Source: a virus
Length of the DNA: 64,000 nucleotides
Virus record (IMG/VR): IMGVR_UViG_3300020469_000023
Location: 35,096 to 99,095 of that record
Strand: one strand, 5' to 3'
The notes beneath the pieces are model-generated. The model saw only the letters and a program-made list of their open reading frames with translations, searched no databases and had not been told where the DNA came from. Made by a program: the position numbers and the translations under genes. Each line of letters starts with the position of its first letter. The first letter of the stretch is position 1. Below, one piece after another: positions 17,095 to 25,335 of this stretch.

Positions 17095-17607
17095 TTATGT
17101 CGCATACTTTGAAAAGAATGTAATTACAGTTCTATCTGTATTGCCATGTAAGGGGTGATGTGGTACGTTTGCATTGAAACAAACTGCACGATTGTATTTA
17201 AATGGAACTTCGTCACCATCTATCCAAGTGCCACCATTTCCTTCTAGATAAATGACACCTGAAAAGTCCCATGCTTTATCGATATGTGGCATGGGTGTAG
17301 ATATGTTTTGTTCTAGTAAATGTTTGTAGAAAGTAATCCAACCAACTTTTACATCAAACATGTTTTGTATTTTATTGACGACCTCAGGAAGTTCGAACAT
17401 AAGATTTTTAGTTCGAAGTCCTGGCCATTTACCAATGGATTCGCTTTTATTATATTCTGCATATTGTTTTGCAGTATAATAATTAGAACTCTTAGAAAAC
17501 TCTAAGACTTCATCTGGGTCATCAAGAAAGTTTTCAAATACTTGATATTTAGATTTTGACACTAAACTGTAAGGTTGCATAGAGTTTGTCAGTATTGTAG
17601 TCATCAT
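17095..17607 (-). CDS. 2OG-Fe(II) oxygenase-like protein (start may be 17580)
   Basis: ENFLDDPD, WPGLRT, PHID, GVIYL, YNRAVCF, H...R. Confidence 0.7.
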   Translation of the reverse strand: MMTTILTNSMQPYSLVSKSKYQVFENFLDDPDEVLEFSKSSNYYTAKQYAEYNKSESIGKWPGLRTKNLMFELPEVVNKIQNMFDVKVGWITFYKHLLEQNISTPMPHIDKAWDFSGVIYLEGNGGTWIDGDEVPFKYNRAVCFNANVPHHPLHGNTDRTVITFFSKYAT

Positions 17608-18166
17608 CTACTATGTATCTAACCCCAGGTCTTATGGTGAACTTTTTACCAAACTTAATATTTAACATGATATCAGTTTGAATATCTTCAAATTCTCCAT
17701 CATCTACACCGTCTTTTGCGAATGCGAATCTAGGTGAGAAATGAACTTGTGGTGCAAAACAAACTAAGTCTGTATTACATTGAAAGTTACCTTTATACCC
17801 AAGAGTAGTTAAGACTCTAAAGTAATAAGTATCACTTTTTTTACCTTCGATATCACGATACTCTACTCTAGGTCTAAAGTAGAAACCATTATCTTGTTCA
17901 AAGAGTTTTACTGATACTCTAGGTCGGTGTTCAATTCTGCCTTTCTTTTCAATGTACTGATATGAAAAATCCCAGTTATCGAGTTTGTAACCCAATTGGT
18001 GATGTGTTTTATCAGTATCTCCAAAGTAATGTCTGTATCTCCAAGATACATTATTACCAAAACTATCTTTAGTTTGTAATTTTAAATTTAATTGTTCTCT
18101 ATCCCAATTTTCTGCAGAAAATACTGATGCAGATAAGAACATTATTAATATTAAAAGGTTTTTCAT
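17549..18166 (-). CDS. Putative outer-membrane beta-barrel protein
   Basis: Signal peptide MKNLLILIMFLSASVFS; alternating amphipathic strands; ends ATLQFSVKI. Confidence 0.65.
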   Translation of the reverse strand: MKNLLILIMFLSASVFSAENWDREQLNLKLQTKDSFGNNVSWRYRHYFGDTDKTHHQLGYKLDNWDFSYQYIEKKGRIEHRPRVSVKLFEQDNGFYFRPRVEYRDIEGKKSDTYYFRVLTTLGYKGNFQCNTDLVCFAPQVHFSPRFAFAKDGVDDGEFEDIQTDIMLNIKFGKKFTIRPGVRYIVDDDYNTDKLYATLQFSVKI

Positions 18167-18265: not shown

Positions 18266-18273
18266 TATAAATA
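18266..18273 (+). promoter_or_regulatory. gp55-type late promoter of the curli-like operon
   Basis: TATAAATA 7 nt before ATG 18281. Confidence 0.75.
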
Positions 18274-18280
18274 GACGTGT

Positions 18281-18577
18281 ATGAACAATATAATGAAATT
18301 ATTAATGGAAGTGGGTATCCCGATTGGTAGTGCAATCATCATGGGGTTCTTTATCTTTCTGACTTTAAAATACATTTTAGATAGTGTTGGTGGTTCTGTT
18401 ACAGGTCTTACTAACATTATGAATGGTTTAGAGTCAAGAGTTCGTCAAATGAATAATGATATGATAAAGATTGACTTGTTAGTAAGTGAGTCTTTAGATT
18501 TAAGACCAGACATCGATAGAGTTGCGAGAGCAGAAAACTTTATGGAAGATGGTAAGATAGACTCTAGGAGAGATTAA
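18281..18577 (+). CDS. Small membrane protein (N-terminal TM plus coiled coil)
   Basis: EVGIPIGSAIIMGFFIFLTL; RVRQMNNDMIKI. Confidence 0.75.
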   Translation: MNNIMKLLMEVGIPIGSAIIMGFFIFLTLKYILDSVGGSVTGLTNIMNGLESRVRQMNNDMIKIDLLVSESLDLRPDIDRVARAENFMEDGKIDSRRD

Positions 18578-18906
18578 TGAACAGCAGTAATATTAATCAA
18601 ATTGTTTTGATTATTGATGAGGTTGGTTATCCAGTTTTAATGGCAATCGGTATGGGATATTTTATCTGGTATGTTTGGAAGTATGTGACGAAAGAACTAA
18701 AACCAAAAATTGGTGCTTCACATAAGACTCTTATTAAATTATTAGACCAGATTAGAATGCTTGACAATGACTTGATACGATTACAACAGAAAGTAAATAC
18801 TGTAATCGAATATAGAAAACAAGAAGAATTAAAAAAACAAGGGCAAGAAGATGAAGACAGCACAGTATATATTAATGATATGGGTAAGTCTAACGATAAC
18901 AAGTAA
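18577..18906 (+). CDS. Small membrane protein, paralogue of preceding gene
   Basis: EVGYPVLMAIGMGYFIWYVW; QIRMLDNDLIRL. Confidence 0.75.
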   Translation: MNSSNINQIVLIIDEVGYPVLMAIGMGYFIWYVWKYVTKELKPKIGASHKTLIKLLDQIRMLDNDLIRLQQKVNTVIEYRKQEELKKQGQEDEDSTVYINDMGKSNDNK

Positions 18907-19333
18907 TTTGTTTGCTGACCAGATAGTTCATAAATTTAAATCTCCATCATTTAGTGGTATTGGACAATCGTCACACTATTTAACAATAGAGAATCAACAG
19001 AAGTCTCGTAGAGATAAGATTCAAGAAGATATCGAATCTGCAATTGCAAAAGCAGAACGTGAAGCAGATAGTACGACCCATGCTAAGTTCCTTAGAAACT
19101 TAGAGTCAAGAATCTATGCTCAAATATCAAAACAATTAGTTGACCAAATGTTTGGTGATGGAGTAAATGAAGGTTCAATAGAAGGTTTCTTTGATATGCT
19201 TGGTAATACTGTAGCATACGAATTATGTACAGGTTGTGGTGATGATGGTATTGATGTAATTAGAATTACAATTACAGGCGATGATAATACAACAACAACA
19301 TTAGATGTACCAGTAGGTAGTGGAGCATTTTAG
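18851..19333 (+). CDS. csgF: Curli assembly protein CsgF
   Basis: Signal peptide then DQIVHKFKSPSFSG; FLRNLESRIYAQISKQL; precedes csgG. Confidence 0.8.
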   Translation: MKTAQYILMIWVSLTITSNLFADQIVHKFKSPSFSGIGQSSHYLTIENQQKSRRDKIQEDIESAIAKAEREADSTTHAKFLRNLESRIYAQISKQLVDQMFGDGVNEGSIEGFFDMLGNTVAYELCTGCGDDGIDVIRITITGDDNTTTTLDVPVGSGAF

Positions 19334-20205
19334 TGAAAATATTTTTATTGATAGGAGTATTCGTTCTATCAAGTTGTGCTAGTATTCCTTCTTTCTCACG
19401 TATAGATTGTGATGAAAGAGAATTAGCATGTCGAGAAAGTGCAACTATAGAAAAGTTGCCATCGACAGCAGAATTAAAAAAAGTGCCAGGTCCAAGTAAT
19501 GGTAAACCTGTAGTAGTTGCAGTTTATGGATTTACAGACAAAACTGGCCAAAGAAAAAGTAGAGATACATTTTCAGATTTTTCTACTGCAGTAACACAAG
19601 GTGCAGATTTACTTGTTATTGATGCACTTAAAACTGCAAGTAATGGAGAGTGGTTTAGAGTAGTTGAGAGAACTAATATAGATGCTCTCATAAGAGAAAG
19701 GCAAATAATAAGAAGTTCTAGAGAAGAGTTTAAAGAAGATAAACAACTAGCATCTTTAGTATTTGCAGGGATTTTAATTGATGGTGGTGTTGTTGGGTAC
19801 GACACTAACATCGAAAGTGGTGGTCGTGGAGCAAGATACTTAGGTATCGGACACAATACATCATATAGAAGAGATTCAGTAATTGTTAGTCTAAGGGCAA
19901 CCTCAACACTAACAGGTGAAATTTTAATGAATGTTCAGGCGAAAAAAACTATTTTGTCTGTCGGTGGCGGTTATGATTTATTCCGATTCTTTGATATGGA
20001 TACAAAGTTATTGGAATTTGAAGATGGTAACGGATTTAACGAAAGTGTAACGTTTGCAGTTCGCTCCGCTATTGAAGTTGCCGTATTAGAACTTATTTAC
20101 CAAGGACACGATAGAGGTTTTTGGAAAATGAAAAGTGACCATCGTCACCCACACTTAAGTGATGGGACTAACGATAAACACTTAATAACTAAGGAGAAAG
20201 AATGA
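19333..20205 (+). CDS. csgG: Curli secretion channel CsgG
   Basis: Lipobox LSSC; VAVYGFTDKTGQRK, FSTAVTQG, WFRVVER, ERQIIR, GARYLGIG. Confidence 0.92.
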   Translation: MKIFLLIGVFVLSSCASIPSFSRIDCDERELACRESATIEKLPSTAELKKVPGPSNGKPVVVAVYGFTDKTGQRKSRDTFSDFSTAVTQGADLLVIDALKTASNGEWFRVVERTNIDALIRERQIIRSSREEFKEDKQLASLVFAGILIDGGVVGYDTNIESGGRGARYLGIGHNTSYRRDSVIVSLRATSTLTGEILMNVQAKKTILSVGGGYDLFRFFDMDTKLLEFEDGNGFNESVTFAVRSAIEVAVLELIYQGHDRGFWKMKSDHRHPHLSDGTNDKHLITKEKE

Positions 20206-21119
20206 GAACTTTAATTCTCGCTTTATTATTAACAGCAAGTGCTTTTGCATTTGCGGATAATGAAATATATATCGAGCAAGTTGGTGAAGGTGTAGAAATT
20301 ATTATTGAACAAACAGGTAATGGAAACTTGATTGGGCAAAATACTAGCACTGGTGCTAATGCGACCGACATGAAACTGCAGATAGGTAACTCTAATGCAT
20401 ATTGGTTGTTTAATGGAAGTAACAACTTACTATTTGGTGATATCAACTCAGATGGTTCAAACATTGACTATAATGTTCAAGGTTCGAACAACAGAATCAA
20501 TCAATTGATTGGTACTGTAACTGGTAATACTAGTAGTAATCAAAGTGCAGATGCCATTGATATGAATGTAGATGTTCAAGGTGATTATAACCAGACAACG
20601 TTTAGGTTAGGTAATAAATCTGAAACTTACAATACACCTCATAATTTAGGTGATGGTGCATTTTTTAACAATAGTGCAGGTTTTAAAACGTATAGCAATC
20701 ATACATTTACAGGTAGTAACATCACGGGTTATGGAACTTATGGTGGTAATGCTACAAGTAACTATGGGTCAAATGCCGCATATTGGGATGCCTGGAATAT
20801 TACAGAAGGTAGTGCTGATGGTGCCAACATTGACTTATTAGTTGATGGCAGTGGTGCTTCAAATACTATTGGTGCATTTATAAACTCTTCAAATGCTGTT
20901 TGGGATTGGGACATAACTGGTTCAAATAACTGGATATTAACAACTCAAGAAGATGGAAGTGATAATAAAATATCTGTTGATTTAACAGGTGATAAAAACT
21001 ATGTATTTGTTGGTCAAAGAACAGGTACAAGTATAAGTGGTGCAGAGGCGATATTAGATGCAAGTTTTGTTACAGACGGTTCAGAAATTACGATTATTCA
21101 ACAAGATACTGGCGAGTAA
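20202..21119 (+). CDS. Curlin-like secreted Asn/Gly-rich beta-solenoid protein
   Basis: Signal peptide; NEIYIEQVG, IIIEQTGNGN, GSNN repeats. Confidence 0.7.
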   Translation: MRTLILALLLTASAFAFADNEIYIEQVGEGVEIIIEQTGNGNLIGQNTSTGANATDMKLQIGNSNAYWLFNGSNNLLFGDINSDGSNIDYNVQGSNNRINQLIGTVTGNTSSNQSADAIDMNVDVQGDYNQTTFRLGNKSETYNTPHNLGDGAFFNNSAGFKTYSNHTFTGSNITGYGTYGGNATSNYGSNAAYWDAWNITEGSADGANIDLLVDGSGASNTIGAFINSSNAVWDWDITGSNNWILTTQEDGSDNKISVDLTGDKNYVFVGQRTGTSISGAEAILDASFVTDGSEITIIQQDTGE

Positions 21120-22209
21120 TCTTATTCTAATAGGGTCTGTTTATGCAGACTCTATTGGCGATATTCGTGAGCATACTGGTAGTGCGGCAATCGAAAGAGA
21201 ATCTGGTGAAGAACTAGTTGTCTCTCCTGCTTTTTTACCTGATGTTGAAATGAATGATACTGCTATTACTGGTAATGGCAGAATGTTAATTGAATTCAAA
21301 GATAAAGAAGAATTAGCATTGACTGAACACACAAAGATTTATATTGATGAAGTATATTATGACCCTGACCCATCGCTGTCAAAGATGACTATGCGAATGG
21401 CACTTGGTACTGCTAGATTTACATCTGGTAGAGGTGAAATGATTGACAAAGCAAACATTGACATTTCAACACCAACTGCTCAGATAGGTATTCGGGGAAC
21501 AGATTTTACAACTACAGTTGATGAACTCGGTAGAACGTTAGTTGTATTATTACCTGATGAAAATGGAGAATCATCTGGTGAAATATTTATTACAAATGCT
21601 GGTGGGACAATTACATTGAATGAAGCATATCAATCTATGATGCTTCAATCATTTGATGTAATGCCACAAAGAACAGTTATTCTTGAAGGCATTACGCCCG
21701 ATTCAATTAATAATATGTTTATTGTTAATCCACCAAAAGAGATAAAAGAAGTAGAAGCAGAAGGAGAAAGTAAAGAAGACGATGCTCAAGGTATTTTAGA
21801 TGTAGACTTCTTGGCATACGATGCCTTAGAAGAAGATGCTTTAGAAGATAAAGGAGAATTAGAATATACAGAACTAGATATTGACTTATTAGATGTTGAG
21901 TTTCTTCAAGACGTATTAGACATTACTGCTGACCTCGATAGAATAAATGAGATTGATAGAGAGGTTGCAGATATAGGTAATGTTAACATTGAAGGTACTC
22001 AAGTAGGGTTTGATGATGATAGTCAATATAGTACGTTTGTTAATAAAGAAGAAGAGACGATTGTTATGACTAGAGAAGTAGAAGGTGTAATTAGAATAAC
22101 TCATGCGATTTATACAAATGCAGTTATTGAAACATACACTAACCAAAAACCAAGCGAGATAACTTTAGGAGATGGTTCAGATGCAAGAATCATAATAATA
22201 CAAGAATGA
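21058..22209 (+). CDS. FecR-domain protein with acidic linker and C-terminal beta domain
   Basis: TGNGRMLIEFKD, TPTAQIGIRGTDF; signal-like N-terminus. Confidence 0.8.
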   Translation: MQVLLQTVQKLRLFNKILASNLILIGSVYADSIGDIREHTGSAAIERESGEELVVSPAFLPDVEMNDTAITGNGRMLIEFKDKEELALTEHTKIYIDEVYYDPDPSLSKMTMRMALGTARFTSGRGEMIDKANIDISTPTAQIGIRGTDFTTTVDELGRTLVVLLPDENGESSGEIFITNAGGTITLNEAYQSMMLQSFDVMPQRTVILEGITPDSINNMFIVNPPKEIKEVEAEGESKEDDAQGILDVDFLAYDALEEDALEDKGELEYTELDIDLLDVEFLQDVLDITADLDRINEIDREVADIGNVNIEGTQVGFDDDSQYSTFVNKEEETIVMTREVEGVIRITHAIYTNAVIETYTNQKPSEITLGDGSDARIIIIQE

Positions 22210-23036
22210 TTAAATTTTTAAAAGAAAATACATCACCACAAGGTATAAAGACTATCGTAACAATGTGGATTTTATTTGCATTTGCTATTGGTGGTTGTGA
22301 ATATGTATATGCTGATAATGAAGTATATATTACTCAAAGTGGTGAAGGTACAAAGTTGTTTATCGAACAAGAAGGTAAAGATAATAAAGTAGACTTCTCA
22401 ATGCAACATCAGGGTAATGAAGTAAAAATAATCCAGCATGGGCATAATAATAAAATAGCATATGGACATTGGGGTTCACTAACTAGTGGAGATATAGATG
22501 GAACGTTTAATTCATTAGACTTTGCACAAATATGTGGACGTGGTTCAAGTTGTAAAGAATCTGATATCGGTCTGCATATCTATGGAGACAATAACTCAAT
22601 ACGTTGGGGACAAGGATATATTTTAAGTTCTCCGACTTCAACTTGGACATGGGACGGAAGTGAAGGTGGTGGTCATCATCTAACTTTAGATGTTCATGGA
22701 GATAATAATAATGTTGCGGGTAGTCAAAGAAACTCATCTGCAGGCATCTATAGTGAACACCAAGCAGATATCTATCTTTACTCTAATAACAATAGTGTTT
22801 TTTGGAGACAAAATACAGATGGTGTTAAAGATGTAAATTTATACACATATAATGATGGTAATAATATTACTGGTTATCAATCTGGTTATGCAACACATAC
22901 TGCAAATATATCTTTAACTGGGTCTAGTCCAACAACATTAAATTTAACTCAAGAAGGTAACTCTGCTCAATCATATTCACTATCACAAAACTGCCAAACT
23001 ATGGGTGGTTGTAGCATTTCTGTTACACAACAATAA
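22206..23036 (+). CDS. Second curlin-like secreted protein
   Basis: NEVYITQSG, FIEQEGKDN, IIQHGHNN, GDNN repeats. Confidence 0.7.
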   Translation: MIKFLKENTSPQGIKTIVTMWILFAFAIGGCEYVYADNEVYITQSGEGTKLFIEQEGKDNKVDFSMQHQGNEVKIIQHGHNNKIAYGHWGSLTSGDIDGTFNSLDFAQICGRGSSCKESDIGLHIYGDNNSIRWGQGYILSSPTSTWTWDGSEGGGHHLTLDVHGDNNNVAGSQRNSSAGIYSEHQADIYLYSNNNSVFWRQNTDGVKDVNLYTYNDGNNITGYQSGYATHTANISLTGSSPTTLNLTQEGNSAQSYSLSQNCQTMGGCSISVTQQ

Positions 23037-23041
23037 AGACA

Positions 23042-24871
23042 ATGTATAATTGGAAAGTTGTTCTCGTAACAATAGCATTACTTGTAAGTGTTCGTATTGC
23101 TGACCCTAAATTAGTAGAGCAGTTTCGTTTAAACTATTTTGATTCACTTCAATATTTACAAGAACCCGTAGACTCTGGTATTGTTTTAGTTGATATTGAT
23201 GAAAAGTCTTTAGAGCAATTTGGACAGTTTCCATTTCCACGTGATATCTATGCACAAGAATTAAGTAAGAATGGTGCATTGTCTTTGTATGTAATGAATA
23301 TGAGTTTTACAGAAGCAGATAGATTTGGTGGTGATGAAGACTTAGCAAACGTGATGAATCTTCGTGAAGTTATATTATCTTCTATTCCTACAAACGTAAC
23401 AAATAAAGGCGACAAACCATTTCTTGGTTTTGGCAAACTAGGTAAAGGTAACCCAAGTAATTGGTTATATAACTACAAAGGTATTTCTACACCAATAAAA
23501 GAATTAAATCCTGTTGGAGTTGGTGTTGTAAGTGCGGCACCAAGTGTTGATGGTATAGTTCGTGAAGCACCCTTAATGGTAATTGCAAACGAACATATCT
23601 ATCCTTCTCTTGCATTAGAAACTTTACGTGTTTGGAATCGTCAACCTAATTATGCAATGAAAGTAAAAGAAGCAGGTGTTGAATGGGTAAGAATGGGTAA
23701 ACTAGATAAAATGTCCACTACACCTAACTCTAATATTCAGATTGCATATTGGAATAATTTTAAACGTATTTCTTTTGGTGAACCAATGCCAGATGGGCAA
23801 ATGTATATTATAGGACTATCTGCTGGTGGATTGGTAAACCCAGTACCAACACCCATGGGTGCAATGTACCCACATGATGTTCAAGCAAACTTAATTCAAA
23901 CTGTCGTGAGCGGTGTACAAATACAAAGACATTTCTTTCTTGAACAGTTAGAAATACTTGTTCTGATAATAAGTACACTATTAATACTACTTATGGTATA
24001 TAGATTGCCTACGTATTTAAGTGGTATACTATCTCTTGCAATGATTGGTGGTATAGTTGCAACAGGACTATATTATTGGTATACTGCTCTGTTACTTATT
24101 GATGTAGTTTACACGTCACTGGCATTATTCCTAGTGTTTGGACATGCATCATTTAACAAGTACTACGTCACATACAAACTTAAGGAAATGATTAAAGGAC
24201 AGTTTAAAACATATCTATCGCCAGATATGGTAGATAAACTTGCAGAAGACCCAAGTCTTTTAAAACTTGGTGGTGAAAGAAGAAACATGACTTTCTTTTT
24301 TATGGATATTGTAGGGTTTACACCAATATCAGAACACTATAAAAACAATAATGACCCCGAAGGTCTAGTGGAATTAATTAATAACTTTTTAGATAGAACA
24401 TCAAATATTATACTAAATAATGGTGGTACTATTGATAAATACATGGGTGATTGTATAATGGCGTTTTGGAATGCTCCATTAGACAACAAGTATCATGCAG
24501 AACTTGCCTGTATATCTGCAATTCAAATAGAAAAAGAAGTAGGAGAAATTCAAGATGAATTTAAAAGAAAAAATCTACCTAGCATTAATGTTGGTATTGG
24601 TATTAATACCAGTGATTGCATATGCGGTAATCTTGGTAGTCAATCCAGATTTGATTATTCAGTCATCGGAGATGGCGTCAATCTCGCCGCACGTCTGGAA
24701 GCATTAGCGGGTAGAGGCGATTATAAAAAACATATGACTATAGTTGGACAAGATACTGTTGATTCAATAGTTGTAAATGGATATAGTCAGAAAGATGTTA
24801 TGTTTAATTACATTGATGAGATACAAGTAAAAGGTAAAGAAGAAAAAATAAAAATATATTCACCGAGTTAG
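23042..24871 (+). CDS. CHASE2-domain class III adenylate cyclase
   Basis: VLVDIDEKSL, GQFPFPR (CHASE2); 3 TM helices; FMDIVGFT, DKYMGD, DYSVIGDGVNLAARLE. Confidence 0.92.
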   Translation: MYNWKVVLVTIALLVSVRIADPKLVEQFRLNYFDSLQYLQEPVDSGIVLVDIDEKSLEQFGQFPFPRDIYAQELSKNGALSLYVMNMSFTEADRFGGDEDLANVMNLREVILSSIPTNVTNKGDKPFLGFGKLGKGNPSNWLYNYKGISTPIKELNPVGVGVVSAAPSVDGIVREAPLMVIANEHIYPSLALETLRVWNRQPNYAMKVKEAGVEWVRMGKLDKMSTTPNSNIQIAYWNNFKRISFGEPMPDGQMYIIGLSAGGLVNPVPTPMGAMYPHDVQANLIQTVVSGVQIQRHFFLEQLEILVLIISTLLILLMVYRLPTYLSGILSLAMIGGIVATGLYYWYTALLLIDVVYTSLALFLVFGHASFNKYYVTYKLKEMIKGQFKTYLSPDMVDKLAEDPSLLKLGGERRNMTFFFMDIVGFTPISEHYKNNNDPEGLVELINNFLDRTSNIILNNGGTIDKYMGDCIMAFWNAPLDNKYHAELACISAIQIEKEVGEIQDEFKRKNLPSINVGIGINTSDCICGNLGSQSRFDYSVIGDGVNLAARLEALAGRGDYKKHMTIVGQDTVDSIVVNGYSQKDVMFNYIDEIQVKGKEEKIKIYSPS

Positions 24872-24875
24872 CGTT

Positions 24876-25097
24876 ATGAAAAAAGTAGAGAGGTCTTTTT
24901 CAAGTGCAGTAAGAATGCCTTATCAAGATGCAATTGCATTTGCACTAAGACTTCATGACTTTCATATCGCACAATCTATTCAAGACTCAAAAAATAAAGA
25001 GTTTCATAAAAAACAAGCACAAAGAATGCGAGATTGGTTAACTGATATGAAAGATTTTATTATTTCGAATGAGTCTTCTCATGAACATGAAGCATAA
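24876..25097 (+). CDS. Hypothetical protein
   Basis: 73-aa ORF directly after the cyclase. Confidence 0.55.
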   Translation: MKKVERSFSSAVRMPYQDAIAFALRLHDFHIAQSIQDSKNKEFHKKQAQRMRDWLTDMKDFIISNESSHEHEA

Positions 25098-25335
25098 TCA
25101 AAGCATAATGAATAACTTTTAATAAGTCATCTTTATTATACCCATTCTTATTTCCATATCGCTGTGCATATTTCATTATGTTGCCGATACAAAACCCTTC
25201 GCCATGTCCACCATCAATAATAAACTCGGTTGCTTGAAACTTGTTTTTAGAATAATGTTGATTGTAAGTTTTATCAACATAACTTTTAAGTTCTTCTAGA
25301 AATTTGTCTTCGTTGTATTTGTATGTATTTTTCAT
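25060..25335 (-). CDS. DUF3310-like protein
   Basis: TYNQHY, GFCIGNIMKYAQRYG, DLLKVIHY. Confidence 0.75.
   Translation of the reverse strand: MKNTYKYNEDKFLEELKSYVDKTYNQHYSKNKFQATEFIIDGGHGEGFCIGNIMKYAQRYGNKNGYNKDDLLKVIHYALIMLHVHEKTHSK

Follow-up and report, generated by a model that had tools for sequence, protein, structure and literature searches.

The IMG/VR virus record IMGVR_UViG_3300020469_000023, from a marine T4-like phage, is 99 kb long and 57% complete, and the 64,000 nt of it analysed here (the window, to which all coordinates refer unless a contig is named) contain an operon in which genes of a curli-like type VIII secretion system (T8SS) are combined with genes for a protein with a FecR domain and for a CHASE2 adenylate cyclase. 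Nine open reading frames (ORFs) on the + strand, most of them overlapping, span positions 18281-25097. They are listed here together with the box that precedes them.

18266-18273, + strand: TATAAATA, motif of the T4 type, putative late promoter box
18281-18577, + strand: TM1, predicted one-pass membrane protein of 98 aa (phrog_18771, 5e-25; hydropathy; kept in 73 loci)
18577-18906, + strand: TM2, 109 aa, paralogue of TM1 (phrog_18771, 8e-27; cross-matches between TM1 and TM2)
18851-19333, + strand: CsgF homologue (Pfam CsgF, 9e-9; phrog_35372, 1e-36)
19333-20205, + strand: CsgG homologue, predicted outer-membrane lipoprotein (Pfam CsgG, 8e-46; lipobox LSSC with Cys15)
20202-21119, + strand: CurA, curlin-like, 305 aa (Curlin_rpt 0.08, below threshold; hhalign to CurB; AlphaFold2 (AF2) model)
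21058-22209, + strand: FecR-domain protein, 383 aa, predicted to be secreted (Pfam FecR, 1.5e-8)
22206-23036, + strand: CurB, curlin-like, 276 aa, paralogue of CurA (Curlin_rpt 0.04, below threshold; hhalign; hidden Markov model (HMM))
23042-24871, + strand: CHASE2 class III adenylate cyclase, 609 aa (Pfam CHASE2, 3e-29; Guanylate_cyc, 5e-17)
24876-25097, + strand: 73-aa ORF beginning 4 nt past the cyclase (without a significant Pfam or PHROG family)

An earlier interpretation made from the letters alone (the sequence-only reading) had listed the first eight of these genes, and its gene list and coordinates proved correct when set against the ORF map, Pfam and PHROGs; the ninth ORF is an addition to it. 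This last ORF is kept in the closest relatives only (7 loci, 69-77% identity), and its membership of the operon is uncertain. In gene order the first six junctions are overlaps of 1, 56, 1, 4, 62 and 4 nt and the last two are gaps of 5 and 4 nt, a spacing that fits a single, translationally coupled transcription unit and bears out the tight operon that had been described. The neighbours on either side are encoded on the - strand, and the GC skew changes sign over the operon.

The TATAAATA box ends 8 nt upstream of the first ATG. Its copies are only modestly in excess in the window (16 observed against 9.7 expected), and five of the 16 sites have a same-strand ORF of at least 60 aa starting no more than 30 nt downstream, compared with 3.4% of random positions. 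In four of these five, the operon site and three others in the window, the spacing to the ORF start is 6-8 nt. Among related loci the box stands 13-15 nt ahead of the first gene in 35 of 73, and many of the remainder carry one-base variants. This position and its conservation support the late promoter that the sequence-only reading had placed here: the operon is probably transcribed from a promoter of the T4 type, and expression late in infection is a reasonable inference. A match to the gp33-like late co-activator of phage Melnitz was sought and not found, a result that is uninformative in a record of this incompleteness.

A scan of IMG/VR with the CsgG sequence returned 141 relatives, of which 80 loci were kept, the gene order being read wherever the contig was long enough. 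The order TM1, TM2, CsgF, CsgG, CurA, FecR, CurB, cyclase is common to about 80 viral loci, so the co-occurrence of the genes in other genomes, on which the sequence-only reading had made itself depend, holds. Among 50,697 GenBank phage records CsgG and this cyclase occur together only in HTVC008M and four Melnitz isolates, and the annotation of these records already names CsgF, CsgG, curlin repeat proteins, FecR and the cyclase.

The cluster is thus real and conserved, and it is already known from phages of SAR11 and OM43, in which it was reported between 2013 and 2022. Annotations of CsgF and CsgG go back to the HTVC008M genome of 2013; a "curli operon" of pelagimyophages was defined in 2020, when "sibling capture" was proposed (PMC7029224); and in 2022 the CsgGF of Melnitz was modelled and given a possible role in lysis timing (PMC9004378). 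In the same year a cluster with the order histidine kinase, CsgF, CsgG, CsgA/B, FecR, CsgA/B, adenylate cyclase was described from podo- and myo-pelagiphages, CsgA/B being the name used there for the curlin-like proteins. That study inferred that the cluster arose in Alphaproteobacteria and passed between phage families, found the genes at all 65 GOV2.0 stations and matches to them in metatranscriptomes, and discussed aggregation, defence against superinfection, import and recombination (PMC9599517). The sequence-only reading, which had credited the literature with csgF and csgG in some phages, understated this: the entire cluster is in print, as are aggregation, a block to superinfection and the timing of lysis (PMC9599517, PMC7029224, PMC9004378), and its functional ideas repeat published hypotheses.

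The operon has the same genes in the same order as the pelagiphage T8SS cluster of HTVC008M, the pelagimyophage metagenome-assembled genomes (MAGs), the HTVC023P-type podophages and the Methylophilales phage Melnitz, the conserved order being that of the published cluster (PMC9599517). It is a more distant, uncultured member, with a CsgG that is 47% identical to that of HTVC008M and 41% to that of Melnitz and a cyclase that is 38% and 32% identical, respectively, and it differs from the others in a 65-residue insert in CurA and in the 73-aa ORF that follows the cyclase.

The secretion core is readily recognised. CsgG (PF03783) carries a lipobox and aligns over residues 2-268 with solved structures of E. 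coli CsgG (6e-46); the segment FSTAV around E. coli F56 is retained, N55 is replaced by D and residues near Y51 are changed. CsgF (PF10614) scores 36 bits against a Pfam cut-off of 25.8. Its N-terminus resembles a signal peptide, and the mature start VHKFKSPSFSG, a putative counterpart of the part of E. coli CsgF that is inserted in the CsgG pore, is conserved among phage homologues. A phmmer search of CsgF against PDB sequences found no CsgF chain, only chance matches to Bcl-xL at E values of at least 0.005. None of the accessory genes of gammaproteobacterial curli (csgD, csgE, csgC) was recognised, in agreement with the sequence-only reading: CsgE has no match across the 99-kb record, and CsgC and CsgD have none in Pfam among the operon genes, no separate genome-wide search having been made for these two. 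All three genes are reported to be missing from alphaproteobacterial curli systems too (PMC9599517). With the csgBAC-csgDEFG system of E. coli and Salmonella the phage shares the full-length CsgG alignment and the CsgF family, and its two paralogous subunits may be analogous to CsgA and CsgB of E. coli; whereas E. coli curli genes form two divergent operons, the phage has one, under a putative phage late promoter.

The two genes that lead the operon encode small membrane proteins. TM1 is predicted to have one transmembrane segment and a helical tail with the C-terminal motif ARAENF.EDGK.D.RRD, and it shares the motif R.(M/L)(N/D)ND(M/L)I(K/R) with TM2. For both, the only matches in PHROGs and the ESM Atlas are viral proteins of hypothetical or unknown function, and by these matches TM1 and TM2 are a pair of paralogues known only from phages. 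The corresponding proteins have been labelled histidine kinases (PMC9599517). The label is unsupported for proteins of 98 and 109 aa with one transmembrane segment, a helix and no kinase domain: Pfam gives no hit at all and no kinase family (HisKA or HATPase_c) at E values up to 0.1.

CurA and CurB are paralogues (hhalign probability 99.6%, E 7e-25). CurA begins with a signal peptide followed by DNEIYIEQVGEG..IIEQTGNGN, CurB ends in C.T.GGCS.SVTQQ, and the mature start common to both families is (D)DNEI.I.Q.GD.L.L.I.Q.GYGN. Such N-termini (DNEI.I.Q) are presumably unlike the glycine-rich targeting segment of CsgA. Twelve of 14 diverse CurA relatives match Curlin_rpt weakly (best 9.5e-4), always in the N-terminal repeat IEQ.G....I.Q.G.GN. 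In its AF2 model CurA is built of paired strands, with a predicted local distance difference test score (pLDDT) of 75-89 outside residues 139-203, and by VIA-align the model groups with beta-solenoids, among them the Pontibacter CsgA structure 8c50 (Z 15.3; 191 aligned residues, root mean square deviation 9.0, 18% identity, the highest identity in the list). Foldseek against the PDB gave nothing for this model at E values up to 0.001, only generic beta-helices. Residues 139-203 (window 20616-20810) form the 65-residue insert, which is rich in Asn, Gly, Tyr, Thr and Ser, is found only in the closest relatives, is predicted to be disordered (pLDDT about 30) and divides the solenoid into two halves.

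The most decisive test came from bacterial synteny. Five of 301 sampled alphaproteobacterial genomes hold close CsgG relatives (38-47% identity), and in all five the order is csgF, csgG, curlin gene or genes. The HMM of the phage CurB family matches the curlin genes beside csgG in these genomes with E values of 8e-24 to 1e-6, and the same neighbouring genes are Curlin_rpt proteins by Pfam (1e-70 to 7e-8). Since the CurB model finds bona fide Curlin_rpt genes adjoining csgF-csgG, CurA and CurB are, by homology and gene position, diverged true curlin homologues that occupy the place of the substrate genes in a bacterial T8SS operon; family, paralogy, HMM and model evidence together point to secreted subunits with curlin repeats. 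The alphaproteobacterial operons share with the phage the gene order and the absence of CsgE, and their curlins have many canonical repeats (Pfam to 1e-70), whereas those of the phage are highly diverged. CurA and CurB would be exported through CsgG and may form fibres or amyloid.

A further protein of the operon that is predicted to be secreted has a FecR domain (Pfam 35 bits against a cut-off of 24) and, by its fold, belongs with the periplasmic domains of anti-sigma regulators: Foldseek of its core relates it to the C-terminal domain of PupR (6ovk, 7e-4) and to BDI_1681 (4m0h, 1e-3). An N-terminus of about 30 residues resembles a signal peptide, rich in K/R and continuing with ILASNLILIGSVYA before DS; it is followed by the core (approximately residues 33-230, the conserved domain starting at I33), by an acidic linker that is predicted to be disordered (33 D/E in 92 residues), and by a C-terminal domain of six strands, confident in the model, that ends in RIIIIQE. 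Sequence, alignment and hydropathy reveal no internal transmembrane segment and no room for a cytoplasmic anti-sigma domain, and Pfam finds neither an extracytoplasmic function (ECF) sigma factor nor a TonB-dependent transducer gene in the operon. Because the N-terminus is too short for an anti-sigma domain, and an internal transmembrane segment and a sigma factor or transducer gene are missing, the protein, judged by its domains, has a FecR domain but is not an iron regulator of the FecR type.

The cyclase is laid out as a CHASE2 receptor, with a predicted transmembrane segment at residues 6-24, a periplasmic CHASE2 domain (Pfam, residues 11-315), three transmembrane segments within 305-367 and a cytoplasmic catalytic domain at about 410-609; the hydropathy peaks are at 6-24, 305-323, 322-340 and 349-367. 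Alignment to CyaB (3r5g) and Cya2 (2w01) assigns the full set of class III adenylate cyclase residues, namely the metal-binding D422 and D470, the adenine-specifying K466 and D538, the phosphate-binding R536 and the transition-state residues N547 and R551, and it bears out the metal Asp pair, the ATP-specifying Lys and Asp and the NxxxR motif on which the sequence-only reading had relied. Between 24 and 26 of the 26 phage homologues retain these residues, and such an intact site would be expected to produce cyclic AMP (cAMP).

Of the 301 alphaproteobacterial genomes, 100 encode cyclases related to that of the phage (36-41% identity, about 750 aa). For the 20 best bacterial cyclases, which come from 19 genomes, every Pfam FecR match was mapped by whole-genome search; this was used instead of greedy ORF picking near the cyclases, which was dropped because spurious long antisense ORFs in high-GC DNA displaced real genes. 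Against a background of 68 matches in approximately 69 Mb (about one per Mb), a FecR match lies within 3.5 kb of six of the 20 cyclases where about 0.24 would be expected (Poisson p about 2e-7, our own calculation); a seventh has one at about 6 kb, and more CHASE2-FecR pairs are found elsewhere in the same genomes. CsgG or CsgF is near none of the 20. One of the FecR neighbours is a giant protein that goes on into repeats of the cadherin-like, Big_9, FG-GAP and RTX kinds and so is composed like a surface adhesin.

Comparable pairings have been described. In S. meliloti the locus clr-cyaD1-smc02177-smc02178 sets a CHASE2 cyclase beside a FecR-domain gene, the cyclase CyaD1 feeds the CRP-like regulator Clr, and a CyaD1 construct that lacks CHASE2 makes cAMP constitutively (PMC5498481). 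A Burkholderia/Pseudomonas operon encodes a response regulator, a LysM-FecR protein and a CHASE2 histidine kinase (PMC5192318). As in the phage, an extracytoplasmic FecR-domain protein stands beside a CHASE2 receptor in these loci, and in S. meliloti the receptor is likewise a class III adenylate cyclase. The bacterial systems differ in that their cyclases are about 750 aa rather than 609 aa long, in that they are not linked to CsgG, and in having a cytoplasmic reader (Clr or the response regulator), to which no equivalent is seen in the phage. Judged by gene neighbourhood, FecR and the CHASE2 cyclase are a bacterial signalling pair that is genetically linked, and it is not linked to curli; conversely, no gene for FecR, the cyclase or TM1/TM2 lies within about 9 kb of csgF-csgG-curlin at the five bacterial loci. 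In addition, alphaproteobacterial CHASE2 cyclases are often adjoined by ORFs of great size (1,500-3,350 aa) that have a FecR domain at the N-terminus, as at L105:68-6073 (G178:C62), G149:C1 near 679 kb, G112:C1 near 1.27 Mb and G190:C48; this architecture of FecR and adhesin may merit separate study.

The module is not entirely invariant among viruses. One clade (L008-L014 and L071), whose CsgG is 70% identical to that of the window, keeps TM1 through CurB and has no cyclase. Several of its members carry an extra ORF of about 170 aa between FecR and CurB (L010:10892-11404, in the region L010:10892-12216) that matches no known or informative family. In the large viral contigs L076-L080 (216-340 kb) CurB and the cyclase are set apart by 2-4 kb of additional genes, for example at L077:11849-15626, again without an informative family; a weak cytochrome c motif (E 1e-3) is present in one product of 456 aa. 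A 52%-GC contig in a Nisaea MAG contains a reduced module of one TM gene, CsgF, CsgG, CurA, FecR and cyclase (L091:423-5388) that adjoins a tyrosine integrase, a Sak4-like annealing protein and a Cas4-like exonuclease (L091:6120-10114), and its composition differs from that of the myophages at about 33% GC. The neighbouring integrase and the GC content indicate that a temperate phage, unlike the others in composition, carries the module as well.

A scan of bacterial genomes with the FecR alignment gave ten matches. Nine are the phage operon itself, on contigs in unrelated MAGs, and the tenth was rejected as an unrelated FecR-Hint protein. The whole operon is found in GTDB representatives (L083-L090) labelled Synechococcus, Sphingobacteriales, Rhodobacterales, Saprospirales, Planctomycetaceae and Pelagibacter. 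These contigs are almost certainly phage contamination of the bins, and they could seed false "bacterial" records of CsgG, FecR and cyclase.

Taken together, the operon appears, from gene content and synteny, to combine two modules of alphaproteobacterial type, namely the T8SS core and the pair of FecR protein and CHASE2 cyclase, with a phage-only pair of membrane proteins. The two modules are interleaved as curlin-FecR-curlin-cyclase, and the comparative evidence is that FecR and the CHASE2 cyclase are a separate bacterial pair grafted by phages onto the curli core. We think it probable, with some reserve, that the whole is a curli-like secretion module of the pelagiphage type that provides a fibre coat late in infection together with a FecR-gated cyclase. 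The lipoprotein CsgG would form a channel in the outer membrane with CsgF seated in it, by analogy with E. coli, and CurA and CurB would be secreted through it as beta-solenoid fibre subunits, so that late in infection the cell would acquire a pore and a coat of phage curlin fibres. Through the FecR protein the periplasmic CHASE2 domain would be informed of how secretion, the fibre or the envelope stands, and its input would gate cAMP synthesis in the cytoplasm. The contact between FecR and CHASE2 and any benefit to the phage are likewise putative.

A possible structural link between the two modules lies at the C-termini. The CurA, CurB and FecR families all end in an alternating-hydrophobic strand that closes with Q (ITIIQQD, SISVTQQ and RIIIIQE/NITITQTN, respectively), and the closing motif is conserved in 44 distinct FecR sequences. 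The FecR C-terminal domain was considered as a curlin homologue and rejected, as hhalign gave an E value of 0.05-0.14 and a probability of about 1% and matched only the last 11 columns. The shared terminus is therefore treated as a short motif and as a lead only; it would fit docking of FecR on a curlin strand. The chain from fibre to FecR to CHASE2 proposed by the sequence-only reading gains comparative support from the bacterial linkage and from the adhesin-fused form, whereas its last step, the cAMP output, is unsupported by anything found.

Several observations weigh against a fibre coat coupled to a signalling cyclase. The direct Curlin_rpt scores of CurA and CurB are 13-14 bits, with a cut-off of 20.7, and the CurA profile has no match in the 301 Alphaproteobacteria at E values up to 1e-3. 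As the cyclase-less clade keeps everything else, the cyclase is, on this comparative evidence, dispensable for the rest of the module. In S. meliloti smc02177 is dispensable for signal perception by the CyaD cyclases and behaved as an output (PMC5498481), and Melnitz infection produced no clumping in cytograms or transmission electron microscopy (PMC9004378). Transcription of the operon could not be drawn from public RNA libraries either: one oligo-dT marine RNA run contains 82% of the words sampled from the sequence, and its contigs, at 100% identity, are spread evenly over the operon, its flanks and intergenic DNA, which makes RNA indistinguishable from carried-over phage DNA; no start site is readable.

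A further point against it comes from the search for a reader of cAMP, which covered the cyclic-nucleotide-binding domain PF00027 in phages and Pelagibacteraceae and class III cyclases in Pelagibacteraceae. PF00027 has no match in the 99-kb record, in the complete HTVC008M and Melnitz genomes or in three large related viral contigs, and control genomes gave matches in the same search. Among 81 sampled Pelagibacteraceae genomes (including G303-G381) three have PF00027 and 78 do not, and three have a class III cyclase domain, one of these being the mis-binned phage contig L089. Within these limits, the phage brings a cyclase to a host lineage that is mostly without the usual cAMP machinery, no receiver of the signal was found, and the cAMP output has no known reader among the phages and genomes examined.

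Two alternatives come next, both of them unlikely in our estimation. The first, which follows the Melnitz study (PMC9004378), reduces the system to its pore: CsgG and CsgF would be a gated pore, or a device akin to secretins or pinholins that times lysis, and the curlin-like proteins would not be fibres. The lack of a CsgE gate in the 99-kb record, a CsgG constriction that is partly unlike that of E. coli at N55 and near Y51, the two holin-sized one-pass membrane proteins at the head of the operon, the probable late expression and the unclumped Melnitz cells (PMC9004378) all agree with it, but the Melnitz work assumed csgA and csgB to be missing, whereas two curlin homologues with signal peptides are kept in the substrate position in nearly all loci, and a pore through the outer membrane would by itself leave the conserved FecR protein and cyclase unexplained. 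The second, given about the same low credence, retains FecR and the CHASE2 cyclase as a sensor of fibre or envelope and makes FecR a third client of the pore, whose conserved C-terminal strand (I.I.I.Q) could dock on curlin subunits and so tie the fibre physically to the receptor, an arrangement at which the adhesin-fused FecR proteins beside bacterial CHASE2 cyclases hint; the cAMP would go to an unrecognised receptor or be exported, since the phages and most SAR11 genomes have no cyclic-nucleotide-binding domain or class III cyclase.

We give still less weight to reprogramming of the host, in which cAMP from the cyclase would steer a host regulator of the CRP/Clr type and the secretion genes would be mere neighbours. 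The active site of the cyclase is intact and conserved, and the homologous CyaD1 of S. meliloti feeds a CRP-like Clr (PMC5498481), but the rarity of PF00027 and class III cyclases in Pelagibacteraceae and the absence of PF00027 from the phages examined speak against it, and the curlin-FecR-curlin-cyclase order, which some 80 loci and different types of phage share, suggests that the genes are coupled in function and not neighbours by chance. Least probable is a role in uptake or iron sensing, where an open CsgG would import cofactors or siderophores under a FecR regulator of the iron-citrate type (PMC9599517, PMC7029224): the missing CsgE and the name and fold of FecR, which match anti-sigma regulators of cell-surface signalling, speak for it, but the phage protein has neither the anti-sigma domain nor the internal transmembrane segment, the operon has no TonB-dependent transducer or ECF sigma factor, the bacterial FecR relatives adjoin CHASE2 cyclases and not iron transporters, and the two curlins would be left without a role.

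With a fibre coat and a FecR-gated cyclase as the favoured reading, the phage pore, fibres and cyclase could have very large-scale effects on aggregation, carbon export, superinfection and recombination, as has already been argued in print. To this the present analysis adds the curlin homology established through bacterial synteny, a quantified FecR-CHASE2 linkage that includes adhesin-fused forms, the correction of the iron-regulator and histidine-kinase labels, and the missing cAMP receiver.

Two features outside the operon may be recorded. Divergent from it lies a 205-aa ORF (17549-18166, - strand) with a weak, sub-threshold match to DUF2490 (3.5e-4) and no PHROG; a perfect TTGACA-17-TATAAT promoter stands upstream of this ORF at 18225-18197 (- strand), with some 40 nt between its -35 box and the late TATAAATA box. 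Immediately past the end of the operon and on the other strand, a perfect sigma-70 consensus promoter at 25372-25344 (- strand) precedes the ORF at 25060-25335 (- strand), which encodes a 91-aa DUF3310 protein (phrog_480, 5e-31).

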